Shown: positions 1-33,686, numbered from the stretch's first letter. The stretch is DNA of 64,000 bases from Anaerohalosphaeraceae bacterium (GCA_050309605.1 JBNRMN010000052.1:1-64000); one strand, 5' to 3'. The notes: generated from the letters alone by a model not told the origin. Numbers and translations are program-made.

Positions 1-1
1 A

Positions 2-1150
2 ACGTCGCGTCAGCAACTGAGCTGCATTCGAAACGGCGGGAACGTTCAGCGTGTTGTCCGCCACGCAGTGATAAAATCCTTCATCGGCGATCTGCACATT
101 CTCAATGACCAGCGTCGAAGCGGTTTGCCCGCTCAGCGCTTCGCCGTCTTTGTACCACTGATAGGTTTCGGCGTTCAGAGCGTGCACCGACAACTCCGCC
201 GCAGCGCCGATGTCAACGGTTTGAGCGGCGGGATGCTGCACGATAATCGCCTCGGCAGGCACGGTCGTAAACGACCAGACCGGTCCCACATACCGAATCG
301 GCGTCGGATCATTCGGCTCATACACATCCACCCGCCAATAATACGTCGTTCCGTTCAGCAACGAAACCGGAAGGCTGGTCTGGTCCGTCGAAGCCTCAAG
401 CGCCGACGGGTTGCCTTCGGCCACAAGCGTTTCGTTGGGGTCGATATAGACATCGTATCCCGCCGCCGCATACGCATTCGGGCCGACCCAGCTCAATTCG
501 ACATCCGCCGGTACATTATCCGCGCCGTTGGCCGGAACAGGTGTGTTGACATACGGTGTCACCGTGCTGTACGTCGCAATAAAATGGGGGTTCCAGTTGG
601 GTTGATTGATGGTGGTAAAACCGCTCTGGATAACACCGCCCCAGGGATAGGCCGTGCTGACTTCCTGTTCGACGCCGCCGGTGACAAGATTCCACGTCCC
701 TTCTTCTTCGCCCGGCACCAGCCACACGATGGCATACTGGGTGTCCTTATTCAAGGGGACATAATCAAACTCCCATGTCATCAGCGAATCAGGGTAGGTA
801 ATGGGAGTGGCTGCCATATTCACCGTATTGGTTGAAATACCGACAATCGTAGAGTTGTTGAGATTGCCGTCCCATGTCAAAACGCCCAAATGCGCTTCGC
901 CCGTTGCGCCAAATCCACTGGATGATTTGGCATAGGTCCAGTCCAGCAGATACATCACATCCGGCACCACCGTCTCGGCCGGATCCAGCGCCGTCTTGGC
1001 CGGGGTCATCACATGTGACAAGAAAGCCGCCTGATTGGTTCTAAAGAGAGGCTCCACACCATGAAACGTCTCGGTAAACGTGTCCGCAAAGGCAACCGAA
1101 CACAAGGCGATGAAAATCGCCGACACCAGTAATATGCTTTTATTCTTCAT
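2..1150 (-). CDS. Secreted modular protein (signal peptide + unassigned 'domain A' + FN3-like + Ig-like), 3' end runs off the window; paralogue of 1188..3137
   Basis: Absent from the ORF track (no stop in window). Manual translation from ATG 1150: MKNKSILLVSAIFIALCSVAFADTFTE...PDVMYLLDWTYAK...IVGISTN...MTWEFDYVPLNKDTQYA...YYWRVDVYEPN...GPVWSFTT...YQWYKDGE...DEGFYHCVADN, open to the window edge; GGAG-type RBS upstream; colinear with the 649-aa neighbour. Confidence 0.9.
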   Translation of the reverse strand, partial: MKNKSILLVSAIFIALCSVAFADTFTETFHGVEPLFRTNQAAFLSHVMTPAKTALDPAETVVPDVMYLLDWTYAKSSSGFGATGEAHLGVLTWDGNLNNSTIVGISTNTVNMAATPITYPDSLMTWEFDYVPLNKDTQYAIVWLVPGEEEGTWNLVTGGVEQEVSTAYPWGGVIQSGFTTINQPNWNPHFIATYSTVTPYVNTPVPANGADNVPADVELSWVGPNAYAAAGYDVYIDPNETLVAEGNPSALEASTDQTSLPVSLLNGTTYYWRVDVYEPNDPTPIRYVGPVWSFTTVPAEAIIVQHPAAQTVDIGAAAELSVHALNAETYQWYKDGEALSGQTASTLVIENVQIADEGFYHCVADNTLNVPAVSNAAQLLTRR

Positions 1151-1187
1151 AATCGTTCTCCTGTCAAACATAATGTTTCAATCGCCT

Positions 1188-3137
1188 TTAATCTACATTT
1201 CTGACGACATTGCTGTCCAGCCAGTTCTCCGCCAGGACCGCTAAATCGTACAGATCGACGCGGCAATCCCGATGTTCAGGCCCCACACCGGTCGGACCGG
1301 CGATGTCAAGTTCAGGGAATCGGGCACAGACATCATTATCCTTAATTTCACGATAGACCTCGATAATCTCATCAAGCGACAGCGGATAATTATAGATCCG
1401 GACATCATCGACGGAACCGGTAAAACCAAGCTGCGTATCCGCCTCGAATGCACCGCCGATCAGCAGATCGGTTTGCCCCGACGACAACGTCCCTTGAATC
1501 CCTGCGACATCCTGCAGAACTTCAAAGGTATCGCCATTATTGTAGATTCCGTAAGTGCGCCGCTCCTGCGTGGCCGGATCATAGGTCATCGCCGCAAACC
1601 GCCAGCCGTCGGATTGATCGCCCGGCACCGCCGTGACCCAGGGGCCTCCATCCAGAAGCGTCGCGATTTGTTCGTTTTGGCCTTTTCCAATCGCATAGGA
1701 TCCGGTTTTACTGACCGCCCTGCGGTAATCCCGACCCGACGGACCGGCCACCCAGGCCGTTACGGTCAGCCCATTGGGGTGGAAATTGAAGAACTGGGCA
1801 CTGTTCGGAATCCGAACCACCCTGATTCCATTAAACCGGGCAGCGCCCTGCGGCGTCCCGTCTGCCCCCTCGACATAGCTGACCGGTTCTGTTGCCGGCT
1901 CGCCTTCTTCAATATACACGCCGTCCCAGTTCTCATCCATTTTAGTTACAATCGCCTCAAGCGAACCGTCCAGCGGCCAGTGAGCAATCAGACGCCGAAT
2001 CATCAGCCGCGCCGGATTCGATGCCTCCGGTACTTGACGCTCATTGTCCACAACGCAGTAATACTCCCCTTCATCGTCATACTGAGCATTCTCCAGCGTC
2101 AGAACAGGTGAATCCTCCCCTATCGGCACACTGTTGCCGTCCGGCAGCACCTTGTACCACTGATACACCGTCGTGTTCTCCGCTTCCACGGAAAATTCAG
2201 CCGTGCCGCCTTGCGGTACGGACGTATTGACAGGATGCATCGTAATCACGGCTCTGGCCGTAACCGTCGAAAACGACCACACCGGACCGGTATGCACGAC
2301 CGGCGTCGGCTCGTTCGGTTCAACAGCCTCGACGCGCCAGTAGTAAGTCATATCGTTGTCCAGGGTCGGAACGGGAGTAAACGTCAACTCCTGCTGAGCG
2401 GGACTGTAATACATCGCATCCTGAGCCGTCAGGTTCAGCTCATTCGGATCCAGATACACCGTGTAAGATAAGGCCTCATAGGCCTCCGGACCCTCCCACG
2501 ACAGCGTCACTTCAGTCGGCACATTGATCGCACCGCTGGCCGGATAGGGACTACCGGCCACTTGGCGTTGACTGACACTGTAGGTCGCCTGAAACTGACT
2601 GTCCCAGTTATTGGCAATTTCACCTATACGAATCCAGCCGCCGCCGTCGTAGGGGCTGCCTGTCGTCATCCGAACCTCGCCGCGGATTCCGGAAGTGATT
2701 TCGCCCCCCACATACTGAACAAACATCATGGCGTACTGGGCATTGGCATCCAGCTCCAGATAATCAAACTCCCATATCATCAGCGCACCGGGGGCAAACG
2801 CTGACATATCCAGGGCGTTGGTTGACACGCCGACCAATGTGGCTTCGGTCATCTCGGCGACAGTCAACGCTGAAAAAACCGCCAGATAGGTCTGGCCGCC
2901 CTGAGGCACACTCGAAGGCGACCGGAAATACCTCCAGTCCAGCAGATAGACCGTTTCCGGAACGCTGAACCCCTCCGGACTTATCAGACCGGCGTTCGGG
3001 GTAAACGTCTGTCCCCAGCCGTTGGCTTGGTCGGCCACCTGATCAAACAGGGGGTTTCCGGCGGTAAACGTCGCTGCGCCGGCCGTAAGGGACAACCCTG
3101 CCAAAATCATCAAGCCTGCAATTAATTTTGTTCTCAT
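1188..3137 (-). CDS. Secreted modular protein: domain A + FN3-like + Ig-like + LamG-like jellyroll + C-terminal dockerin-like motif
   Basis: Signal peptide; YYWRVEAVEPN..GPVWSFST; Ig motifs YQWYK...DEGEYYC; LamG-like AHWPLDG...FTGSVDDVRIYNYPLS; C-terminal DCRVDLYDLAVLAENWL; GGAGG RBS. Confidence 0.85.
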   Translation of the reverse strand: MRTKLIAGLMILAGLSLTAGAATFTAGNPLFDQVADQANGWGQTFTPNAGLISPEGFSVPETVYLLDWRYFRSPSSVPQGGQTYLAVFSALTVAEMTEATLVGVSTNALDMSAFAPGALMIWEFDYLELDANAQYAMMFVQYVGGEITSGIRGEVRMTTGSPYDGGGWIRIGEIANNWDSQFQATYSVSQRQVAGSPYPASGAINVPTEVTLSWEGPEAYEALSYTVYLDPNELNLTAQDAMYYSPAQQELTFTPVPTLDNDMTYYWRVEAVEPNEPTPVVHTGPVWSFSTVTARAVITMHPVNTSVPQGGTAEFSVEAENTTVYQWYKVLPDGNSVPIGEDSPVLTLENAQYDDEGEYYCVVDNERQVPEASNPARLMIRRLIAHWPLDGSLEAIVTKMDENWDGVYIEEGEPATEPVSYVEGADGTPQGAARFNGIRVVRIPNSAQFFNFHPNGLTVTAWVAGPSGRDYRRAVSKTGSYAIGKGQNEQIATLLDGGPWVTAVPGDQSDGWRFAAMTYDPATQERRTYGIYNNGDTFEVLQDVAGIQGTLSSGQTDLLIGGAFEADTQLGFTGSVDDVRIYNYPLSLDEIIEVYREIKDNDVCARFPELDIAGPTGVGPEHRDCRVDLYDLAVLAENWLDSNVVRNVD

Positions 3138-3347
3138 TTTGAAAACCTCCGCTAAAATATTAAACTCTATCGGCAGCGAATCGTTCGCTGCTCATCTGTT
3201 TTCTTGTTCACGGTTCCGTTGTTCGCTTCCCCTGAAAATACCTTTGATATTCCCGCTGACACAATTCCTGATCTTATTTCTTGCATACCCATTGCTGTAC
3301 CGCATTGCTCACTGCTATATCACATCACACCGGCAGTCGTTTTTTTC

Positions 3348-3388
3348 AAAAGGCAGCGGCGGCCGGGATACACCGCGCAGCCGCTGCC
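3348..3388 (-). terminator. Possible intrinsic terminator downstream of the PEP-CTERM genes
   Basis: Stem GGCAGCGGCGGC / GCAGCCGCTGCC (one mismatch) followed on the minus strand by TTTT. Confidence 0.45.
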
Positions 3389-3484
3389 CCGTTTTACGTT
3401 CACAGCGCTGATTCGCAGTTGGGTGATGACACTGACCCTTGCCGTGCGTTGTTTGGAGCCGAAAAAATAATGTGACTGTTTTTC

Positions 3485-3562
3485 ACCACGAAGAACACGA
3501 AGATCGCCAAGGAAATCCTTTTATTCACTACTATCTTCGTGTTTCTTCGTGCCTTTCGTGGT
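3485..3562. repeat. Inverted pair of short tandem CACGAAG-type repeats
   Basis: ACCACGAAGAACACGAAGATCGCCAAG ... CTTCGTGTTTCTTCGTGCCTTTCGTGGT, about 9-10 nt periodicity, arms are mutual reverse complements. Confidence 0.7.
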
Positions 3563-3605
3563 TCAATGATCCGTGAATCAGTCATTTTATTTCTGTGCGA
3601 TCTCT

Positions 3606-4268
3606 CTACGCCCGTCGCCGACGCAGCAGCGCCACTGCACCGAATCCCAGCATCGACAGCGTTGCCGGTTCGGGAACGACGACCGAAACATTGTCAATGC
3701 CCACGAACGGGGCGGTCGCATCGGTGCCTGTAAAGGCGATCTGGATAAACAACATCTCGTCAACCCCAACCGTGCCGCTGTTGAAATGAATGGTCGTCAT
3801 CTGGTCGTCATAGGTCCCTTTGATCCCAATATCATCATTCCCGTCACCGCGTGCGACAACATCCAGCGGGCCGCCGATCACGCTGCTGGCCGTGCCCAGC
3901 GTCTGACCGACCAGCAGGTCAACCCAGGCGGTTGCGGTTCGGGCAGGGTCATCCGTCTCGCACACGATCGCGGCAGAAAAGATATAATCCGTATCCGCAG
4001 CCACGGTTATACCTCGGCTGTTAATCCCGGTCCCTGCCGCGGCATTGGCGGAGCTGGCGATCCACAGTGTCTGACCGCCAAAATTGCGCCAGGTATAAAA
4101 AATACGGCTGGCATTGGAACCTGAACCTTGGCCGTTCCAGGTCCAGTTACCGGTGGCACTGAAGTCGGCCGGGTCGCTCAGCGGATAGGCCTCGAAATCA
4201 TCGACGAAGACCGCGCTTGCCGCGGTCGCCAAGGCCACAATCATTGTTAATACTGCCAATCTCTTCAT
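3606..4268 (-). CDS. PEP-CTERM sorting domain protein carrying unassigned 'domain B'
   Basis: Signal peptide MKRLAVL...ASA; C-terminal VPEPATLSMLGFGAVALLRRRRA; GGAGGT RBS favours ATG 4268 (ORF track start 4283). Confidence 0.9.
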   Translation of the reverse strand: MKRLAVLTMIVALATAASAVFVDDFEAYPLSDPADFSATGNWTWNGQGSGSNASRIFYTWRNFGGQTLWIASSANAAAGTGINSRGITVAADTDYIFSAAIVCETDDPARTATAWVDLLVGQTLGTASSVIGGPLDVVARGDGNDDIGIKGTYDDQMTTIHFNSGTVGVDEMLFIQIAFTGTDATAPFVGIDNVSVVVPEPATLSMLGFGAVALLRRRRA

Positions 4269-4331
4269 CGTCATTACCTCCATACTAAAAGTTAAGATTA
4301 CGTTAATGACAGATCATCTACTGTGTGCCGA

Positions 4332-4961
4332 TCATGCGCGACGCCGACGCAGCAGCGCCAATCCGCCCAGCCCCAGCATCGACAGCGTCGCCGGTTCGGG
4401 AATATAGGTCGCCTGAAACTGGCCGTCCCAGTCATTGGCGATCTCGTTGATACGCACCCAGCCGCCGCCGGTGTATTGGTTGCCGACCGTCAAGCGAACC
4501 GCCCCCTTGACGATTTGCAGTACATCCTCATTGTACTGAACAAACATCATCGCATACTGCGTGTTCGCATCCAGTTCCAGCGCGTCAAATTGCCAAGTCA
4601 TCAGGTCGTTGGCCGCAAAATCCTGTGCATTGAGCGCATTGGTGGATACACCAACCAGCGCAGCATCAGTCATCCCGGCAACCGTCAATGCCGAATACAC
4701 CGCCAAATAGGTATCGCCCGGCGCCGGCAAGTTGGTTGTCGAATCCGTTTTGGCATACGTCCAGTCCACCAGATACACGGTATCCGGAACGACATAACCT
4801 TCCGGAAGGATTTTGCCGGCGTTCGGCGTAAAAATTTGTCCCCACCCGTCGGCGCGATTGTCCCATGTGCCGTACGTCGGGTGCCCGGCCGTAAACGTCG
4901 CAGCGGCGACTGCCGACAAGGCAATCACCATCGCCAGACTTAACATCATTTTCGTTTTCAT
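4332..4961 (-). CDS. PEP-CTERM sorting domain protein consisting of domain A
   Basis: Signal peptide; C-terminal IPEPATLSMLGLGGLALLRRRRA; GGAGG RBS. Confidence 0.9.
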   Translation of the reverse strand: MKTKMMLSLAMVIALSAVAAATFTAGHPTYGTWDNRADGWGQIFTPNAGKILPEGYVVPDTVYLVDWTYAKTDSTTNLPAPGDTYLAVYSALTVAGMTDAALVGVSTNALNAQDFAANDLMTWQFDALELDANTQYAMMFVQYNEDVLQIVKGAVRLTVGNQYTGGGWVRINEIANDWDGQFQATYIPEPATLSMLGLGGLALLRRRRA

Positions 4962-5066
4962 CAGTCAAACCTCCACTCATATGAAATAGGTTATCTCATC
5001 GGCGGACCATCCGCCAATTGTTCATCAACCGACATCTTACAATCTCTTTTCTGCTTTCAAGCCGCT

Positions 5067-5897
5067 TTATCGCCACGTTTGAGGGATATAAAAATACCCA
5101 TCCGAACTCATCATCGTCTCCTGACCGGTGTAGCGTCGGACGCTGCCGTCGGCATAACCGGCATTCATTCGCAATTCTTCCATTTCCGTTGGAAGCCGAC
5201 CGGTAGAGGGAATTGAGCCGGGGGCAGGCACATAAATCCAGAAAGACGCGCAATAATTCCCATACATAGGATCTCGGTCGTAATCTTTGAATAGGCCGGA
5301 ACCACGCCGCGGCCGATGCGCCAGCCACCAGTCCTCAGCCACGCCGGGCCAATTGTAAATACTGTCGGACAACAACAACTGAGCGCTGGCTTTGGTCTCA
5401 CCTCTGCCCTTGGGTCCTGTAAACTGCCGACCATCGAGCATCGCCATGGAATAACCGCCCCAGTATAAATTGTACGAGCAGTTTGTACCTTCTCCGGAGT
5501 CTTTGTAATTGACGTATTGATACTGCAATTCGGAATAATCCCTCGTACGTCCCAGGGGACACATAAAGGTGTCAACCAGAGGCAGATAGCCCCCCAAATA
5601 ATAATACGTGCCTTCATTTTCGGCCCAACCGGCAACGCCCTGATGGTAATTCAGGTAATTGGCCACGCTGAATGTTCCGTTTGTACGTTCAGCCGGATGG
5701 GGAGGCAGAACACCTTGATTGTCAGCGGCGTAGGCCAGCACGCCCTTAACCGTCTGATTCATATTGTTGGCGCAAACAATCAACTTCGCGGCCTCCTTGG
5801 CCTTGCGCAAAGAAGGCACCACAATGGACATCAACAGTGCGATGACGGCGATGACCACGAGCAGTTCGATCAGCGTAAACGCCCTTCGATTCTTCAT
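5067..5897 (-). CDS. Prepilin-type N-terminal cleavage/methylation protein (planctomycete DUF1559-like)
   Basis: MKNRRAFTLIELLVVIAVIALLMSIVVPSLRKAKE...C.NN; C-terminal MNAGYADGSV; start placed at ATG 5897. Confidence 0.88.
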   Translation of the reverse strand: MKNRRAFTLIELLVVIAVIALLMSIVVPSLRKAKEAAKLIVCANNMNQTVKGVLAYAADNQGVLPPHPAERTNGTFSVANYLNYHQGVAGWAENEGTYYYLGGYLPLVDTFMCPLGRTRDYSELQYQYVNYKDSGEGTNCSYNLYWGGYSMAMLDGRQFTGPKGRGETKASAQLLLSDSIYNWPGVAEDWWLAHRPRRGSGLFKDYDRDPMYGNYCASFWIYVPAPGSIPSTGRLPTEMEELRMNAGYADGSVRRYTGQETMMSSDGYFYIPQTWR

Positions 5898-5995
5898 TTT
5901 ATGATCCTTTCCATTGGATGTTGCTGCATTTATATTGCTGCACCATGTCATTCAGTCGTCTCACATCCATCGCCGTTAAGATGCAATGGATCGTT

Positions 5996-7366
5996 TCACG
6001 GCGAAATACAGTTGATATTCGCCGGATCAGTGCAGCTGAGCCAATCCTGTGCCAATAAGACAAAATCCTTAAAATCAACGTAACAATCCCGGTTCAAATC
6101 GCCCGGCAGATACGTTCCGGGCGTAAAACAGCCGTCCAGAAAATCTTCGACTTGCTGTCCGTCCAAAAGCCAGCTCAGGTTAAACCGGACAAACTGAGCG
6201 CCTTGATACATATAATTAGGGCCGCCTTCAAACATCAGATAAATCCAGCCTTCGCTCGGCGTGCCCGGTCGGCCTGCGGTCATTGATGAATAAGCACTGG
6301 GACCGTCAAAGACCAGCCGCTTGACCGGCCACGTCTTGCCGCCGTCAAAACTGCCCCACACCGTCATTCGCTGACGTCCGCTGTTTGAATCAATATTACT
6401 GAAGATCAAAATGTCCTGATCTCTGACCGGCAGTCTCACCAGACCGCCCATCAATCCATAGGTACTGTCCTGATTGCCGTCGGGCAGGACGTCACTGACC
6501 GACAAATCCTGCCAGGTGTGGCCGTCGTCATAACTCCAGGCGATATGCCGCCACAGCGGACTCAAGCCGTCGGTGGACAGGTGGCGACGTGAATTGTAAT
6601 TGATGACGCCGCTGGACAGCTCCGCCAGCGCCGCCTCGCCGGTCCCCAGGGCGGGAAACGGGGCACTGGTTTGCCACGTGTATCCCCCGTCGTCGCTGTA
6701 CATGGCGCAGTTATAATGAGTCGGCCAGCTCTCTCTGGCATTACTCCAGCCCGGCATCACCCGAGCGGGCATCAGCAGCCGCCCTTTGTGCTGACCATAC
6801 CGCAGCGTAATGCCGGAATCCGCGCCGTGCGTAAACGCGCTGCCGGCCTGGTACATTTCGTCGTTAATGACCGTCGCTTCATTGGCGGCAACAATGTCTT
6901 TTCTCTGGCCGTTGTGCTCCCAGGTCTTGCCGTGGTCGCCGCTGCGCCAGGAATGCCCACTCTCCCAATCGCCGCCGACGCCGTCCATAAACACAATCAC
7001 ATCGCCGGTGGTTTCATCGACCACCGCCGCGCCCAGCCCGACACCGGCCATGGCGGGATCGTCGCCAATCACAATTTGATCCCCCCATGTCGCCCCGCCG
7101 TCCTCACTGCGGCGAACGCGGGGCAGCGTATTATTCCCCCAAAACGCCAGCACTGTTCCGTCCAGTGCGACCACAATGCTTGGAAACCGGCCGCCCGTAT
7201 AAATCTGCTGCATTTCCATCGCAGGCTCTGCCAGAAACGAATCCAGCTGCGCATCCTGATACTCCAGATTGGCAGCTCCCAGCGCAACCGGCCTGAGCCA
7301 ACCCGTAACAGAAAAAACCGCGATTGCGAATACGAGTGTACATGGTGTTATTCGATTGTCAGGCAT
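5996..7366 (-). CDS. Sialidase (GH33 family) with C-terminal dockerin-like motif
   Basis: RFP (RIP-like) motif, five Asp-boxes (SEDGGATW, SGDHGKTW, SDDGGYTW, SYDDGHTW, SFDGGKTW), AYS nucleophile Tyr, signal peptide, PGDLNRDCYVDFKDF..LAQDWL; ORF track start 7381. Confidence 0.85.
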   Translation of the reverse strand: MPDNRITPCTLVFAIAVFSVTGWLRPVALGAANLEYQDAQLDSFLAEPAMEMQQIYTGGRFPSIVVALDGTVLAFWGNNTLPRVRRSEDGGATWGDQIVIGDDPAMAGVGLGAAVVDETTGDVIVFMDGVGGDWESGHSWRSGDHGKTWEHNGQRKDIVAANEATVINDEMYQAGSAFTHGADSGITLRYGQHKGRLLMPARVMPGWSNARESWPTHYNCAMYSDDGGYTWQTSAPFPALGTGEAALAELSSGVINYNSRRHLSTDGLSPLWRHIAWSYDDGHTWQDLSVSDVLPDGNQDSTYGLMGGLVRLPVRDQDILIFSNIDSNSGRQRMTVWGSFDGGKTWPVKRLVFDGPSAYSSMTAGRPGTPSEGWIYLMFEGGPNYMYQGAQFVRFNLSWLLDGQQVEDFLDGCFTPGTYLPGDLNRDCYVDFKDFVLLAQDWLSCTDPANINCISP

Positions 7367-7435
7367 TCTTCTTTCTTCCAAACAAATAATAAGTTCATCT
7401 GTTCCGATACAACCACGCTGACCGTTTCGTTGACA

Positions 7436-8506
7436 TTACGGCACAAGACAACGGTCAGGCCATGTCGTATCCGTGCACAACATCCAACCATCCGCCATCA
7501 TCGCCAAATCCAATAAATCAACATAACAATCCCGATTCAGATCGCCGGGCAGATAGACCGTCCCCGGCTGACCGCAATAGGGGTCCTGGCCGTGAATCAT
7601 AATGATCACCTCGTCGATCGGCTGATGATGGAAATCCGGATCGAGGCTCTCAACCGTGTGAACCAGTGTGATGGACCGCAACCGACCCGGAATGGGAACC
7701 TGCTCGGTCGCCGCCGTTACGGTGTGTACACCGGACTGCATCGCCGCAAACTGCAGCGTGATCGGCTGTGCCGGCCCGGCGCCGAGATCGACTTCGGCCG
7801 CATAATCACCGAGCGGGGCCACTGTCACCTCCACTGGCTCGGCAGGTTGGCCGCACAGAATGATGTTATACGAATCCGAAGGCGATTCAGACGTGAGATT
7901 CAGTGTGTTGTTTTCGGCGGTGATGATCAGTCCCTCGGTCATATACGCTGCCCGGTAATGCGGATCCCAGTCATTGGCGATGTCATCCACCCGAATCCAG
8001 CCGCCGCCGGGATACGGGTCGCCGGTGGACATAACAACCGCCTGACTTCGGAAAATCCCCGATGCGTCCGGCGTACTTGAAAACATCAGGGCGTATTGCG
8101 TCTCTTTATCCAGCGGGATGCCGTCAAATGCCCAGGTCACCAACACGCCGTTTCCCGCCGCGGCCATATCAACCGCCGTTGACGAAACGCCGAGCAGGTT
8201 GGATGCATTCATCTCATCGGGGTCCAGCTCGGAAAAAATCGCCAGATAGACATCCCCCGCCGTTTGGCCGAAGCCGGAATCGCTTGTTTTGTACGTCCAG
8301 CCCAACAGATACACCGTCTGCGGCAGTTCCAGACCTTCAGGTTCTATCATTCCAACGCCGGGCGTAAAGGTCTGCCCCCAGCCGTTGGCGCGGTCATCTG
8401 AAAACGTTCCGAAACCGCTGGTAAACGGAGTTGCCCCCGCCGCGGTTGAAATCAACAGTATGACCATACAAATCCTGCTCATAAAGACATAAAAACCGCT
8501 TTTCAT
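7436..8506 (-). CDS. Secreted protein: domain A + probable beta-sandwich spacer + dockerin-like motif
   Basis: Signal peptide; GWGQTFTP...TVYLLGWTY...TQYALMF...GGGWIRVDDIANDWD; C-terminal PGDLNRDCYVDLLDLAMMADGW; GAGGAG RBS. Confidence 0.85.
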   Translation of the reverse strand: MKSGFYVFMSRICMVILLISTAAGATPFTSGFGTFSDDRANGWGQTFTPGVGMIEPEGLELPQTVYLLGWTYKTSDSGFGQTAGDVYLAIFSELDPDEMNASNLLGVSSTAVDMAAAGNGVLVTWAFDGIPLDKETQYALMFSSTPDASGIFRSQAVVMSTGDPYPGGGWIRVDDIANDWDPHYRAAYMTEGLIITAENNTLNLTSESPSDSYNIILCGQPAEPVEVTVAPLGDYAAEVDLGAGPAQPITLQFAAMQSGVHTVTAATEQVPIPGRLRSITLVHTVESLDPDFHHQPIDEVIIMIHGQDPYCGQPGTVYLPGDLNRDCYVDLLDLAMMADGWMLCTDTTWPDRCLVP

Positions 8507-8537
8507 CAAAACTCCTCTAATGAATATTGGATACCAC

Positions 8538-9293
8538 TTATGGGTTCCGTCTGATGTCGCCGGAAATATTCAGCAGCTTGAAAATATATAGAAAATGCCT
8601 CGAAATCAGCTCGGCGGCGTCCTGACTGCTGCGCCGCACGAGAGCGTCATACAGTTCACGGTGAGTGGACATGCCGGGCGCTTCGAGAAGCGTGCTGTAT
8701 TGCTGTGTCCCCATCGACCGAACAAGCACCTGAAAAGCCATCGCGTACCATTGCATCAGTTTGGGACGATAGACGCGAACATACTGAGGCCCCCCGGCCA
8801 TCTTATTAACGGTCAAATGAAAATTGATGTCTTCTTGCCTGAACACGTTGATATCAGAGCTTTGCATAGCCTTGTCCATCCGCTCGATAATCCGGCCCAG
8901 CACAGTTAGTTGCTCATCGGTAATGCTCGAGGCAAGACCGTAAAATGAACCCGTCTCAAAGTTCACCCGAAAACGATAAATATCCAGCGCAATTTCAGGG
9001 TCGCTGAAATCCACCAGAAAAGAACCGCGATTGCGATCCGTATAAAGCCAGCCTTCCTGGCGAAGTCTGTAAAACGCCTCGCGAACAGGGCCGTTGCTGA
9101 CCTGCAGTTCTTTGGCCACCACCGATTCGGTAATCTTGCCGGCGTAATGGATTTGTGTTTCGGGGTCTTCTCCGGGAAACACAATCTCGCGCAGGATGTG
9201 CTCGTACACCTCCTCGGCCAGCGCACTGCCTTTTCGAGAACCCTCGTGAAAAGGAATATAATCAAAAATCTGGTGCATAGGAACGGCGGACAT
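8538..9293 (-). CDS. GntR family transcriptional regulator (FCD-type C-terminal domain)
   Basis: LAEEVYEHILREI...ITESVVAKELQVSNGPVREAFYRLRQEG wHTH; DINFH and H..LYDAL...D FCD-like motifs; start uncertain (9401/9326/9293/9278). Confidence 0.85.
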   Translation of the reverse strand: MSAVPMHQIFDYIPFHEGSRKGSALAEEVYEHILREIVFPGEDPETQIHYAGKITESVVAKELQVSNGPVREAFYRLRQEGWLYTDRNRGSFLVDFSDPEIALDIYRFRVNFETGSFYGLASSITDEQLTVLGRIIERMDKAMQSSDINVFRQEDINFHLTVNKMAGGPQYVRVYRPKLMQWYAMAFQVLVRSMGTQQYSTLLEAPGMSTHRELYDALVRRSSQDAAELISRHFLYIFKLLNISGDIRRNP

Positions 9294-9417
9294 CGTGTGT
9301 GTGATCTCCCTGAGAGGACTCATTGGCAATACCTTTCCGACTATTTCATAAATCCCAATCTGAGCGATTAGACCGAAGATAGCTGATAAACACTTAATCA
9401 CTTAAGTACTTAATTGA

Positions 9418-9885: not shown

Positions 9886-10318
9886 CAACAGCGCGGCCGC
9901 GCAAGCGGCCCGATGGGGGACGTAACGCCGTGGGTGTCGCAATCCGGCTCACTCGCGCGGCTCGGCTATTGTAAACAATAGCGCGGCGGCGCGAGCCGCC
10001 CGATAGGGGGATGCGGATAGATGGGACGTTTTCCAAATCGCCGTATTATCCGGCCGCTCGCGCGGCTCGGCTATTGTACGATGACGCAACGCACCAGCGC
10101 GGCGCAATAGCGCGGCGGCGCAAGCCGCCCAATGGGGGGATGCGAGTGTGTTGAACGTTATCCAAGGCGTGGTGTTATCCGGCCGCTTGCGCGGGTCGGC
10201 TATTGTACGATGACGCAACACACCAGCGCGGCGCAATAGCGCGGCCGCGCAAGCGGCCCGATGGGGGACGTAACGCCGTGGGTGTCGCAATCCGGCCGCT
10301 CGCGCGGCTCGGCTGTTG
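9886..10318. repeat. REP/REPIN(BIME)-like array: four inverted doublets of a ~29-nt GNRA-hairpin repeat
   Basis: Forward units CAA(T/C)AGCGCGGC(C/G)GC-GC(A/G)A-GC(G/C)GCCC(G/A)AT at 9886, 9976, 10105, 10234; inverted related units ATCCGGC..CTCGCGCGGCTCGGCTATTG at 9942, 10048, 10177, 10290. Confidence 0.9.
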
Positions 10319-16932: not shown

Positions 16933-19900
16933 TCAGTCAAGCAGCCACATGCTCGACATCACGGCCAAATCCTCAAGATCAACCGCCTTGTCGCCGGTCA
17001 GATCCGCGCCCCCGCAGGGCGGAAAATCAGTACAGCCGCCGGCAAGCCAGTGCTCTGCCAGACCGGCCAAATCATCCAGCCCCTTTTCGCCGGTCAACAT
17101 ATCCCACACATACACCTCAAACAGGGCTTCCGTAAACCGGTCTTGCGAATCGGTCGCCCGAACGGTAAACGTATTCAATCCCGTATCGGCGTCGCGCGGC
17201 ATACCGCTGAGCGTCCCGTCAGGTTCAACCACAAGCCATTGCGGGCCGGCGACTTTGGAAAAGACAGCCGGATGGCCGTCGAAGGAGGACGCCAGATGCG
17301 ATACGCTGTCCAGGTAATCGCGGCCTTCCAGCGCATCGACGCCCTCAATCAATTCGGCTGCAAAATAAGGCGACCAATCATAATCGGGAGCATACGGCGC
17401 CAGATAGCGGCCCGGAATGACCTGCCGCTCAATGCCCGGCCCGCTCCAGGCCACCGACACATGATCGCCACCGCCGCCTTCTTTATGCAGCGCACGGATG
17501 TAATAGGCGCGTCCGGCCTGAAGGCTGTAGGTGTTGGATTGTTGAGAGGCATATTTATCCCATTGTCGATGATCCGTCCAGGCCGAATCGCCGGTCACAT
17601 TGGCAATGCGAATAGCGTTCGAAGCAGACGTTGTCGGACTGAGCCACAATTCCGAATTATCATCGCCGGCAATCCAAAACGTGTACTGACCCGTTGTCGG
17701 CGGGACAAGAAAACCGTGTATCCGCGACCCGTAATTATCCGCCCAGTTGATCGGCCCTTCAAACGAGTCAATCAGTTCCACGACATCGGGACTGTTCGGA
17801 TAGCGGGCGTTGCCGGTCAATGCCGAGACCCGATTGCCGGAGATATTTCGCCAGGCTTGGCGCAAAATTCCGCCGAAACCGTCGCCGGTTGTAAATGTCC
17901 AGACCTGTCCCGGAATGATCTGGCCGCCGGCAAGCACAGTATCCACCCGCCAATAGTATCGGGTGTTTCGTTTCAGTGCATCCGGCCGATAGGTCGGCAA
18001 GGTCACTCGGCCTTCATACTGCACAGAAGACGTATCCGCAGCGGCCACCGCATCGTAATCCGTGCCGAGATAGACGTCATTGGCTGCCGCCGAGGCGCCC
18101 ATCGACCACTTCAGATCAACAGACAAAAACATCGCCTGCGCGCCGTTAAACGGATTGGGACTTTCTGCCGCGCCGCCGGCAATCACGTCCTGGATTTGAC
18201 TTTCCGTCAGAGCGACACTGTAGATTCGCACATCATCCAGTCCGCCGTGGAAACTCCGGTCGGCCCGGCCCCAATCCCGTCCGACAGCCGAACTGCCGTA
18301 GAAGGATTCGGGCTGATGGGCGGCATTGTTGACGGCCTTATTCAGCGCCGAGCCGTCATAGGTATAAAGAGTCGCCCGCGTCGGTTCAATCACCAGCGCA
18401 ACAAAGGCCGCCTGACCGACCGAAAGGGACAATCCGGAATTCCAGTTCCAGTACTTGTCATTCCAGTGATACCCCAGCCGGTTGTTATCCCGGAAATTCA
18501 GATTGGCCGCGCCGCCGTTGCGGCACGAAAAAATCGCGGCGTACGGCGTCTGAACACTGTCAGGCCGGACCCATGCGGTTATCGTCACCGTATTGCTGCT
18601 GAAATTCATTGACGGCATTTCAATATAATCATCTTCACCGTCAAAGACCAGAGCGCGGCCGAACTTGCCCGGAATCGAATCCGCCTCGAAGGTCAAGCCG
18701 CCTCGTAATTGACCATGGTTGCCATTGATCGTTGAATCATAGGCCGTCGTACCGGAGGTTTCATCCAGTTTCCAGTATCCCCGAAGTGTCGGGTTCGGAA
18801 CCTCCACGGTAACATGAACATTGCCGTGAGCAGTCCGCCCGGTTGAATCCACAATGGTGTACTGAAATTGATCCATCCCGATCTTATTGCCGGGCGCCCT
18901 ATAAAACAACTCATCGCGACCGTTCGGGCCGGTTCCCGGCGACAGTTCCAATGTGCCGCCGAACGCCGTTGTTTCCGGAAAATCGGCAATCGCAATCGGA
19001 TCCCCGTTGGCGTCATAATCATTGGCCAGCACATCCAGTCTGCCCGATTCGGTCGCCGCGACGGTGAACCGGTCAAGATTCGCATACGGGGGGACCGGAT
19101 AATCATACAGTCCGATGTTGCGGATATTGACGCCCTGATTCAGCTTCGATTGACGACAACTCATAATCTGGAGCAGTTCGGGATTTGAAAAACGAGACAG
19201 CCCGTAATTGTTGCCGCTCATCACCGTCGCGCCTTCCGGATTGCCGCCCACATTATCGCTGGCTCCCAAGTTATGCCCGACCTCATGACGGGCCACATGC
19301 TGCCAGTTATGGTCGTTGCCGTTCCAGCCGTTAAAGGATCGCCCCCCCCAGCCGGAACCGCCGTAGTCGCAGACAAACGCCACCCCGCCGCCCACCGAGC
19401 CGACCATCCCAATAAAATGGTGATTTACGCCGGGGAACATAGCATTCCAGTAATCATTGACGTTCCACCAGTCGATGCCCCATTGCTCGCTGGATCGATC
19501 CAGACCGGCGTTGCTCGTGCGATAGACGACCTTGCCCAGTTTGACTTCCATCAGCAGATCGCGTGTATAAATCGCATTAAAATGCGCAACAGCGTTTTCC
19601 GCCTTGCGGGCGTAACTGGACAAATCAGAATAATTGGTGGCGTTCATATATTCGACCAGCACATCAAACCCGATATCGTGCTGATAAACAGTTTTATACA
19701 GATTGCCCAACCCGGCGGCTGAAGCGGTAAAAGAGGCTCCCGCATAGGGTGCTCCGGCGGGAGATTGAGGCGTTCCGCCGAGAGGGGTAAAGTTATTCAC
19801 CGCCGCGGCATTGTCATTGGTTTCGTACGGCGGATTGTACCACCAGTCCGTTGCGTTGCCCTTGAACACGTGGTAGCGCAGATCGCCGTTGGGCAGCAGC

Positions 19901-31316: not shown

Positions 31317-33686
31317 TTAATCAAATGCCTCAATGGACTTGCGCAGCGTTCGACACGACTGGTAAAACTCGTCCGGCTCCATTTCTTTGAGGAAGACGAA
31401 CCCCCGCGTTGCGCGAATCAGCGGGCTTTTGTGATTGTAAAACCATTCCCGCCCCAGACAGGTCTTGAGCACCTGATACTGCTGAACCTGAATCCGCTGA
31501 GCCAGTTCCGAAAACGGCCCGTCGTGCTCATAACTGGGAAACGACGCTTCTTTCTGGCTGAGAAACGCATTCTCAAACGACTGATGCATCACCGAAAACA
31601 TATTCAGGCTCACCGGCACAAACACATTCGCCTCTGACGGCTCAAACCGATACCACACATTGCGATATCCCCACACCCGAATATCATCACGTTTGGTCTT
31701 CTGTTGATAGACCTGCATCGCCTCGGAGACGGCCTGAAGCACTTTATAGTGCGTATCCGGCCCGCTGGCTTCCGGGTCCAGCGCCACGGTGACCACGTCC
31801 GGATGAATACGCTCCAATTGTTCAACAATCGGCAGAATGTCGCGTTTGCGCGTCGGCTGCGGCGTGAACACATCCCCGGTATAAAACCCAAGCCGCAGAT
31901 GCATCACATTATCGCAGTTCCAGCCGTAATAGCCCCACAGACACTCCACTTCCCACTCACGGCACATGCCTTTGAGCTGCTGAATCGCCGGCGGGTCCTG
32001 CTTGCCGGGGTACTGCGTTCGAAAATAATCCAGCAGGTCGTCAATAATCTTTTCAATCTTATCGCTTTTTTTCTGCCCGTACACCGCGTACAAATTCCGC
32101 AAAAAGCGGCGCGCGCAGCCTTCGTCCTTCATCTCGGCGTTTCCGGCCGCCACCCCGTCCAGATACTGCCAGACATCACGATTCCGTGCCATCCGGTTGT
32201 CCGGTTCAAAATATCCCTCACGCCGCAACGCCGCAAACGAATGCGAATGATAAAACCGCCAAAGCGTGGATACCTGCCATTCCATAAACCGGTTGGTCAC
32301 CGACGTAAAGCCGCTGGTCAGCGTCATAAAATGATGGCGGTTGCTCGCCTTTCGAAAATGACGCACCAAATGACCGAAATACCCCAGCATAATATCATCA
32401 TGATGTGGTTCGGTATGCAGAAAACAGGTGTTCTCCAATACCTCAATGCCTTTTTTGATCTTCTGCTCAAGACGCTCCTGCACCTGTCGGGCCAATTGCG
32501 CGGGGGGGTGTTTTTCTTTGCGCACTGTTTCCGCGGCAAATCGATGCTGCTCAAAATCGCCGGCCGACAGACGCGAGAGCCTCTTTCTTTTCTGAACCGA
32601 CAGATCAATGACATATTTTTCGATATCCGCATCACTGAGCTTTCGCTGTTTGCGCAGCCGATGATACTGCCGTTCTTCAAGTCCTTTGGCCGCCCCCTCG
32701 GTCAGATAGAACCGAGCACCCGGCAACACCTGAAGCGAAGTCGCCGGATAGCGAACGTCCTTGCCCGATTGGATCGCATGGGCCACCACATCGGCTTTCG
32801 CCTCGCCGGCGGCCATAATAATCGCGGTGCAGTCCGGGTTGCGGGTAATGGTTCGCAGGCCAATGGTAATCACATGCGACCGCCGTGCGATTTCAATCCC
32901 GCCCAGATCGCCCGCCGCGGCGGCCTGCGTCTCATAATTGGTCGGACACAGCCGTGTCGTGGAATGATGATCCGAACCGCTGATATTAAACCCGATATGA
33001 CCGTCCGGCCCGATGCCGCCCAGAAAGAAGCCGATACCGCCCAATTCGGCGATGCGATCCTCATAATCCATACACCACTGGTCAATGCGCTCCAGCACAT
33101 CCTTCTGCTCGCACTCCAGATTGGTCTTGGGCTGACGATAACGCAGCGTCAAATCCACCCGCTTGTCCGGCCAGACGCGCTCCAGTGTCTGCCCAGACGA
33201 CAGACCGATCTTGCACGGATCGATCAGCATCGCCTTTTTCGGTTCCAGACCGAAGTTTTTGAGATAATACGTCTTGACGTAATAACAAAAGCTGTTGGCC
33301 TGGGCTGAATTGATTGGATAAAACTCATCAATCTGGACAAAATGAAGGCTTTTCATATCCGGCTTGACGGCCGGATCAATGCCCCATTCAATGAGCATCT
33401 TTTCGGTTTCGGGCTTGTGCCAGGTTTTCAGCAGATGCCGAACCCACTTGATGAAATACTCCGGCGTCTTGCCTGTCGGCAGTGAAATCAACCCGCCGGG
33501 ATGCTGCTGAACCCATTCCAGAAAACGCAGCGCCGCCAATTGGCCCAGGACGGGAAAACTGTTCACCACCAAAGACGGTATCTTCTCTGTCGGCGGATAG
33601 ATCATGTCATAAGCCGAACAGGCCAGCGCCTTTTTTTCGACGTGCGACAGTCGAACCGATGTTGTTACTCTTTTTTTTGCATCCAT
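31317..33686 (-). CDS. nagB: Glucosamine-6-phosphate deaminase, long form with C-terminal PIG-L/LmbE-like domain
   Basis: LPTGKTP, QIDEFYP, GGIGPDGHIGFN, ITIGL; C-terminal half has EPHHDD and DPEASGPDTHYK. Confidence 0.85.
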   Translation of the reverse strand: MDAKKRVTTSVRLSHVEKKALACSAYDMIYPPTEKIPSLVVNSFPVLGQLAALRFLEWVQQHPGGLISLPTGKTPEYFIKWVRHLLKTWHKPETEKMLIEWGIDPAVKPDMKSLHFVQIDEFYPINSAQANSFCYYVKTYYLKNFGLEPKKAMLIDPCKIGLSSGQTLERVWPDKRVDLTLRYRQPKTNLECEQKDVLERIDQWCMDYEDRIAELGGIGFFLGGIGPDGHIGFNISGSDHHSTTRLCPTNYETQAAAAGDLGGIEIARRSHVITIGLRTITRNPDCTAIIMAAGEAKADVVAHAIQSGKDVRYPATSLQVLPGARFYLTEGAAKGLEERQYHRLRKQRKLSDADIEKYVIDLSVQKRKRLSRLSAGDFEQHRFAAETVRKEKHPPAQLARQVQERLEQKIKKGIEVLENTCFLHTEPHHDDIMLGYFGHLVRHFRKASNRHHFMTLTSGFTSVTNRFMEWQVSTLWRFYHSHSFAALRREGYFEPDNRMARNRDVWQYLDGVAAGNAEMKDEGCARRFLRNLYAVYGQKKSDKIEKIIDDLLDYFRTQYPGKQDPPAIQQLKGMCREWEVECLWGYYGWNCDNVMHLRLGFYTGDVFTPQPTRKRDILPIVEQLERIHPDVVTVALDPEASGPDTHYKVLQAVSEAMQVYQQKTKRDDIRVWGYRNVWYRFEPSEANVFVPVSLNMFSVMHQSFENAFLSQKEASFPSYEHDGPFSELAQRIQVQQYQVLKTCLGREWFYNHKSPLIRATRGFVFLKEMEPDEFYQSCRTLRKSIEAFD

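Follow-up and report, generated by a model that had tools for sequence, protein, structure and literature searches.

We analysed a 64,000-nucleotide stretch of DNA from an Anaerohalosphaeraceae bacterium (GCA_050309605.1, JBNRMN010000052.1:1-64000), referred to here as the window, in which four proteins (A to D) begin with the same domain directly after a signal peptide. An earlier note on this DNA had recognised this domain, which we call domain A, and had proposed that it is a lectin or carbohydrate-binding module (CBM) displayed around a sialidase. Up to about position 9,400, the window carries a run of minus-strand genes with the following features:

2..1171, minus strand: protein A, 390 amino acids (aa), cut; signal peptide, domain A (most diverged subtype), FN3/Big_5-like region and Ig_3 (E 3.4e-10)
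557..1081, minus strand: domain A, copy A; hidden Markov model (HMM) E 1.2e-71; 36% identity to copy C
1188..3137, minus strand: protein B, 649 aa; signal peptide, domain A, FN3/Big_5-like region, Ig_3, Laminin_G_3 and a degenerate dockerin-like tail
2568..3071, minus strand: domain A, copy B; HMM E 1.7e-84; 62% identity to copy C
3606..4283, minus strand: protein E, 225 aa; a second head unrelated to domain A with a PEP-CTERM anchor (Pfam and NCBIfam); companion of protein C
4332..4961, minus strand: protein C, 209 aa; signal peptide, domain A and PEP-CTERM anchor; the stand-alone short form
4401..4898, minus strand: domain A, copy C; HMM E 6.8e-84; the copy used for modelling
5067..5951, minus strand: prepilin-type N-methylation (DUF1559-like) protein, 294 aa; N_methyl E 2.8e-8
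5996..7381, minus strand: GH33-type sialidase (BNR_2, Asp-box) with a dockerin-like C-terminal tag, 461 aa; BNR_2 E 9.3e-18
7436..8509, minus strand: protein D, 357 aa, TTG start; signal peptide, domain A, spacer and dockerin-like tag
7931..8428, minus strand: domain A, copy D; HMM E 7.8e-83; 44% identity to copy C
8538..9401, minus strand: GntR/FCD (NanR-like) regulator heading the locus, 287 aa; FCD E 2.8e-13

The carriers of domain A are largely as the earlier note had described them. Protein C ends in a PEP-CTERM tail, protein B continues into Ig_3 and Laminin_G_3, and protein A is cut after Ig_3. The Ig and LamG parts of the proposed FN3-Ig-LamG stalk were matched by Pfam in protein B (Ig_3 E 2e-8, Laminin_G_3 E 2.8e-13), while the FN3-like part amounts to a weak Big_5 match (E 0.017). 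Since the window corresponds to contig C52:1-64000, it is the contig itself, and not merely the window, that ends within protein A. Full-length orthologues of this protein from a congeneric genome and a metagenome contig are 652 aa long and add Laminin_G_3. A Pfam search of protein D returned no family, and its spacer had no family match. The start of this protein was placed at an ATG at 8506 in the earlier note and lies at a TTG at 8509 in our annotation.

After the signal peptide, proteins A, B, C and D align over approximately 166 residues with 30 invariant columns, and all motifs that had been read by eye (GWGQxFTP, TVYL, YLAV, VGVS, WxFD, QYA, GGGW and DWD) were found in the copies. Copy A is indeed the most diverged, sharing 36% identity with copy C compared with 62% for copy B and 44% for copy D. 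An HMM built from the four copies was searched against all 25,624 stop-to-stop open reading frames (ORFs) of at least 60 aa in the host genome (3.4 Mb, 97 contigs, 99.73% complete). It gave exactly four matches, with E-values from 1.2e-71 to 1.7e-84, and none other up to E 10. A broader profile of 60 sequences, run against the genome and the neighbouring loci, revealed no hidden extra head; its additions were signal-peptide and PEP-CTERM matches, and the heads of protein E and of several stalk proteins belong to a different family. The four copies of domain A are real, selected paralogues, and orthologues of each are kept in relatives.

The variant signature of copy A recurs in the relatives P0010, P0014, P0016 and P0018, the last of which has a PEP-CTERM anchor. 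Judging from these sequences, copy A would be a member of its own conserved subtype and not a decayed copy, which makes a second binding specificity plausible. Several of the residues conserved across the family lie outside the predicted strands: T24-P25, P38, G61, S85-T-N87, Y142 and G144-G145. These would fit a candidate loop-formed binding site.

No Pfam or NCBIfam model covers domain A in the four proteins. Protein C gave sub-threshold matches to FxDxF (24.9 bits, cut-off 50) and THxN, which came partly from its PEP-CTERM tail. Among 60 aligned relatives searched with Pfam at E ≤1, none had a family on the head, and the matches were otherwise PEP-CTERM and scattered single chance matches. 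This agrees with the earlier statement that domain A cannot be placed in a named family. A word-indexed search of 5.8 billion clusters yielded eight matches to domain A, and an exhaustive profile search of 1.84 billion representatives yielded 102 at E ≤1e-3, 34 at E ≤1e-10 and 11 at E ≤1e-30. With 102 relatives in 1.84 billion sequences, the family is small. A profile search of PDB sequences matched no solved chain (best E 0.69).

We compared domain A with choice-of-anchor domains, which are defined by the combination of one domain with various sorting or anchoring signals on its C-terminal side. Domain A likewise precedes varied C-termini: a PEP-CTERM tail in protein C and 34 of the 60 relatives, a dockerin-like tag in B, D and relative P0009, and none on the sialidase fusions described below. 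At E ≤0.1, the choice-of-anchor R model NF041539 matched none of A, B, C and D; it had no match in the whole genome, and at E ≤0.01 it matched one of the 60 aligned relatives. The best relatives of domain A scored 21.7-25.4 bits against a curated cut-off of 30 bits, and the sub-threshold matches in P0021, P0026 and P0054 sit exactly on their domain-A copies. We therefore state that domain A is outside NF041539 by the curated cut-off. When the domain-A alignment was compared by hhalign with 18 aligned true members of NF041539, drawn from 401 Planctomycetota genomes (22 with a match), the two aligned with 86.7% probability (E 4.3e-6) over 132 columns, or nearly the whole domain. Negative controls with the unrelated head of protein E gave 36% (signal peptide only) and 0.1%. 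The two families share a core pattern (GQxFT ... L..(T)xY ... Y.GG), and both precede alternative C-terminal anchors. Domain A is thus probably a remote branch of the choice-of-anchor R superfamily, much as the earlier note had guessed in speaking of a remote choice-of-anchor-type sandwich. We know of no described function of choice-of-anchor R or link of it to sialidases, and a literature search on "choice-of-anchor" found no title on type R among the matches listed.

The AlphaFold model of copy C, based on a 60-row alignment, is an all-beta sandwich (predicted local distance difference test, pLDDT, 94.5; predicted template modelling score, pTM, 0.90). Structural neighbours were ranked with an exhaustive structural aligner, of which we considered the best 50 matches. 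The highest score was to a Staphylococcus phage 812 baseplate protein (PDB 9euf chain 0; Z 11.7 over 133 residues, root-mean-square deviation (rmsd) 2.9), followed by the PBCV-1 capsid protein (Z 10.0), the lectin-like domain of Cwp84 (PF18560; Z 9.4 over 131 residues, rmsd 3.5), the Bxb1 tail-tip protein (Z 8.4), the CBM-like domain of the esterase PbeAcXE (Z 7.7) and PHR domains (Z 7.3-7.6). A long tail of CBM32, CBM6, CBM35 and F-lectins followed at Z about 5. The nearest named clusters in the ESM Atlas were Lectin_like PF18560 (0.91), DUF4082, DUF7901 and PHR. These scores suggest a lectin- or CBM-like sandwich, in line with the fold proposed earlier, without naming a ligand. The phage 812 baseplate and Cwp84 lectin-like domains are the best structural neighbours, yet they share 5-11% sequence identity with domain A and have no HMM match to it. 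The Pfam model PF18560 matched none of the 60 relatives, so that this likeness is structural only. In the available part of PMC13433997, the leg domain of the phage 812 tripod protein is likened to the Cwp84 lectin-like domain and considered a possible receptor-binding site; the chain matched here (9euf 0) may be that protein.

Relatives of domain A were found in Phycisphaerae, where related loci were searched with the four-copy alignment. At E ≤1e-5, the domain was present in nine of 401 genomes of the class and in five of 28 of the same family. In all six domain-positive genomes of the family (G000, G028, G207, G399, G187 and G103), a copy lies less than 4 kb from a BNR_2 gene or in frame with one; each of these genomes has three to eight BNR_2 matches in 2.8-4.6 Mb. 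In G103 (Anaerohalosphaera lusitana), domain A and the sialidase form one frame of 730 aa that is annotated as a sialidase precursor (P0029). Over the 44 multidomain relatives scanned, fusions of domain A to BNR_2 were seen in P0017, in which two heads flank the sialidase, P0024 and P0029. In the A. lusitana locus, a fusion to BNR_2 lies at L028:9122-11311. P0027 is a fusion to a GDSL/SGNH esterase, and further catalytic partners were GH53 in P0102, a weak member, and an M12 protease in P0050. The earlier note had suggested asking whether homologues co-occur with GH33 genes; they do, through linkage in every domain-positive family genome and fusion in three relatives. Structurally, domain A also corresponds to a module in the CAZy sense, a contiguous and discrete fold within a carbohydrate-active enzyme, as it is fused to BNR_2 and SGNH domains and is confidently predicted as an autonomous beta-sandwich. 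BNR_2 was present in six of six domain-positive and eight of 17 domain-negative family genomes checked, a pattern that is only supportive because these genomes are kin.

The loci around domain A also hold genes for a GntR/FCD regulator, a prepilin-type protein, a DHDPS-family (NanA-like) lyase, an N-acetylglucosamine 2-epimerase, SASA/SGNH sialate esterases and a NanM-SSF transporter. The same type of regulator precedes domain-A genes in loci L022, L023, L024, L027, L049, L050 and L053. On metagenome contig L050, which is syntenic with the window, protein A is followed by a GH29 fucosidase, the epimerase and NanA, which shows how the locus of the window continues past the end of its contig. 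A scan of metagenome contigs found five loci, of which two are syntenic close relatives, and adds little independent evidence of linkage.

A prepilin-type DUF1559-like gene occurs in most related loci, usually beside the gene for a short PEP-CTERM head (L022:15280-16173, L023:9315-10184, L024:4457-5290, L028:14711-15580 and L050:5253-6134), and the host genome has 38 ORFs with a prepilin-type N-terminal motif. DNA near-identical to positions 1-9400 of the window (at least half of the sampled words) occurred, apart from the possible source, in sequencing runs from five studies with the labels soil, metagenome, biogas fermenter and gut metagenome, and lower shares were found in sludge and anaerobic-digester runs. 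No RNA run was among the sequencing runs listed with near-identical window DNA.

Two kinds of C-terminus attach these proteins. Protein C has the properties of a PEP-CTERM/exosortase substrate, with a C-terminal motif recognised by PF07589 (23.3 bits, cut-off 20.7) and TIGR02595 (22.8 bits, cut-off 16) and two Exosortase_EpsH genes in the genome (E 1e-57 and 7e-56). The genome contains 21 ORFs with a PEP-CTERM tail. The second kind is the dockerin-like tag. Type I dockerins have two calcium-binding repeats. The tails here hold one repeat only, of the type D-x-N-x-D..VD..D...L...W or, more loosely, D-x-N/D-x-D...D..L...W (DLNRDCYVDLLDLAMMADGW in protein D), and no dockerin model, including PF00404 (type I) and NF041540 (GC-type), matched the tails of B, D or the sialidase at E ≤0.1. 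Of the tails called dockerin-like in the earlier note, what stands is that B and D carry related single-repeat tails. When expressed as a regular expression (D.N.D..VD..D...L...W), the tag was found at most 40 residues from the C-terminus in 53 distinct ORFs of the genome, which suggests that it is a general sorting or anchoring tag in this host. Many of these ORFs encode large secreted proteins, with examples at window positions 5999-6100, 7439-7560 and 16936-17010. At the DNA level, C and E share 87% identity in their PEP-CTERM tails (repeat family D7), the sialidase and D share 73% in theirs (repeat family D5), and the tails of B and D have a repeat in common (repeat family D6). These repeats show that tail modules are common to neighbouring genes.

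Domain A is not the only head at these loci. The head of protein E (motifs DDFE.Y, GNWT, SRIF and LWI) has no Pfam family, and its AlphaFold model, from five sequences, was beta-rich and poor (pLDDT 66.6). In an hhalign comparison with domain A the signal peptide alone aligned, and the E head is therefore unrelated to domain A. It takes the short PEP-CTERM form in the genome of the window and in G028, and sits on FN3-Ig-LamG stalks, at 40-47% identity, in G207 (L023:7246-9186), G103 (L028:5026-6999) and G399 (L025:9493-11736). A third head was observed in A. lusitana, where a 252-aa protein (L028:4193-4948) and the N-terminal part of a 664-aa Ig-LamG stalk protein (L028:7062-9053) share 65% identity over 241 aa. 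Since the same pairing of short and long forms occurs on the unrelated E and third heads, a short anchor paired with a long stalk looks like a rule of these loci and not the property of a single domain. The earlier image of one binding head displayed at several heights holds in part: domain A has at least two conserved subtypes, and the pairing extends to the other two heads.

Domain A lies behind a Sec signal peptide, at the mature N-terminus of non-catalytic proteins of a sialic-acid utilisation locus. On balance, though by no means firmly, we think that it is a new, CBM-like head that binds sialoglycans and is displayed by surface proteins without a catalytic part, which come in short PEP-CTERM and long stalked forms. 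The head would bind the sialoglycan substrate of the locus through sialic acid or another nonulosonic acid, or through the sugar beneath. The short form, C, would be held near the membrane by PEP-CTERM/exosortase processing, and the long forms, A and B, would be held tens of nanometres out on the FN3-Ig-LamG stalk. The dockerin-like tag shared by D and the neighbouring sialidase would put both at the same site. Together, the heads would capture polymeric substrate and keep it beside the sialidase, a role that we propose by analogy with surface glycan-binding proteins and CBMs of other phyla. The GntR/FCD regulator would probably switch on the set with sialic acid. A more ambitious version can be entertained only tentatively. 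It would make domain A a new CBM family for sialic or other nonulosonic acids and combine it with the E head in a surface system of a planctomycete type for capturing glycans. Each head would be produced in two versions, a short PEP-CTERM-anchored one near the membrane and one on a long FN3-Ig-LamG stalk, and the two tiers would form a net from which tagged sialidases are supplied under the control of a NanR-like regulator.

Several observations weigh against a sialoglycan-binding head. Glycan binding is something that we infer, and the sequence itself points to no ligand. CBM40 modules have an arginine that binds the carboxylate; no arginine is conserved throughout the domain-A family, and the candidate in "AVRLTVG" is kept in copies B and C and not in A or D. 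Foldseek found no match to domain A in the PDB at E ≤0.001, and Z values of 7-12 can reflect a mere common arrangement of the modelled sandwich. The phage 812 and Cwp84 neighbours themselves have no proven ligand according to the available part of PMC13433997. The linkage to sialidases among kin is partly inherited synteny. One copy in G399 (contig C21, locus L025) adjoins flagellar genes, with no BNR_2 on the stretch examined, one in G187 (contig C67) lies on a 2.9-kb contig that is too short to tell, and the three most distant members of the class (G045, G144 and G272) have no sialidase linkage. Finally, BNR_2 was present in 28 of 40 family genomes in one sample, compared with domain A in five of 28 in another. 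Most GH33-bearing genomes of the family therefore lack domain A, so that sialidase function can do without it.

Domain A might instead be a generic adhesion or aggregation head that binds the exopolymer of its own cell or community, or a surface, with its place at the locus resulting from a shared biofilm or floc life. The PEP-CTERM tail that Pfam detects in 34 of 60 aligned relatives and the fact that most full-length entries are stand-alone proteins of approximately 200-250 aa are consistent with this, as are a kin family, choice-of-anchor R, with no known sialidase link and the unlinked distant members of the class. Furthermore, the sub-threshold floc_PepA matches of several distant relatives reach into the head: residues 34-229 of P0034 align to positions 61-258 of the 261 in floc_PepA at 31.3 bits (cut-off 80). 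Conversely, fusions to GH33 and SGNH domains are expected of substrate-targeting modules and not of floc adhesins, and all six genomes of the close clade show the sialidase linkage. We consider this alternative unlikely.

A catalytic or catalysis-assisting role, as in PbeAcXE, would explain the structural match to the N-terminal domain of that enzyme (over 129 residues) and the identical order of head and SGNH domain in P0027. In the available part of PMC9105624, residues of the PbeAcXE-type CBM-like domain bind uronic acid at the domain interface. However, three of the four window copies and most relatives are on non-catalytic carriers or stand alone, and no conserved catalytic-looking dyad is evident. 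Solved chains, among them 7tog, gave no sequence match to the head of P0027, and the matches to the SGNH part of this protein were ordinary SGNH esterases. This makes a role in catalysis very improbable. We give still less credence to domain A as a cohesin-like dock, in which it would bind the dockerin-like tags, with C anchoring the tagged sialidase and B and D chaining head-to-tail: cohesins are beta-sandwiches too, the locus encodes both head and tag, in some cases within one protein, and the tag has no identified receptor, but the genome has 53 tagged ORFs against four with domain A, the domain is absent from 392 of the 401 sampled class genomes, fusion to sialidases without a tag partner would be unexplained, and no cohesin was among the best 50 structural matches, which does not imply exclusion.

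If domain A is a sialoglycan-binding head, the closest functional parallels are the known modules of sialidases. CBM40 and CBM93 are beta-sandwich modules N-terminal to GH33 catalytic domains that are thought to position the enzyme on sialoglycans, and CBM93 is equated with PF14873 BNR_assoc_N, according to the available part of PMC9472817. Domain A takes the same N-terminal position in P0024, P0029 and the A. lusitana enzyme, and differs in that it is mostly found on non-catalytic anchored proteins. PF14873 matched none of the 60 relatives at E ≤1, and in G207 a true BNR_assoc_N on a neighbouring sialidase coexists with domain A as a distinct module. The comparison with CBM40 gave no Pfam family on the head, no solved chain below E 0.69 and no CBM40 entry among the best 50 structural matches. 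A further parallel is the domain of approximately 175 aa, with three antiparallel beta-sheets, that precedes the SGNH esterase of FjoAcXE and PbeAcXE (PDB 7tog and 7tok) and aids the binding of acidic sugars, as described in the available part of PMC9105624. The CBM-like domains of these two enzymes scored Z 7.7 and 5.7 to domain A, and P0027 shares their domain order. Unlike domain A, which is mostly free-standing, they pack tightly on the catalytic domain, and they have no sequence match to it.

The overall arrangement resembles that of the SusE/F-like surface glycan-binding proteins of Bacteroidota, which are non-catalytic, anchored beta-sandwiches encoded beside glycosidases and a regulator. 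Those proteins are anchored by lipidation, whereas domain-A proteins use PEP-CTERM or a dockerin-like tag, and there is no SusC/D pair at the locus; to our knowledge, Planctomycetota have no SusC/D-type machinery. Our literature searches, with CAZy and subscription journals outside their coverage, found no description of domain A. CBM-like accessory modules and choice-of-anchor heads are known, but the domain-A family, its link to sialic acid in Phycisphaerae and the paired display are undescribed in the literature covered.

Beyond the GntR/FCD gene, a 129-nucleotide tandem repeat (window positions 9976-10267; 2.3 copies, 86% matches) separates it from a GH2 gene and yields odd repetitive ORFs on the minus strand. 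Downstream, positions 10523-35154 encode a GH2 with F5/8C, an M60 peptidase, a tagged 1264-aa LamG and PA14 protein, a CBM9 protein, an SSF transporter, an epimerase, an APH-family kinase, a GH20, a nucleotidyltransferase and a GH109. An AraC regulator comes next, on the plus strand. The gene set of this region is a mucin-type glycan toolkit. A 789-aa protein without a Pfam family is encoded at 31317-33686.

How Planctomycetota capture glycans is poorly understood, and the proteins of this locus are concrete candidates, open to testing, for surface glycan binding in the phylum. The natural fusion of domain A to a sialidase in the cultured A. lusitana (WP_146660961.1) makes the biochemistry feasible. 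If our reading is correct, domain A would join CBM40 and CBM93 as a third type of module associated with sialidases. Such a module for sialoglycans would also be useful as a reagent, and with it the turnover of sialic acid could be annotated better in communities of gut, manure, sludge and digesters, labels that are found on runs with near-identical DNA. The pairing of short anchors and long stalks across several unrelated heads is an architectural rule of interest in itself.

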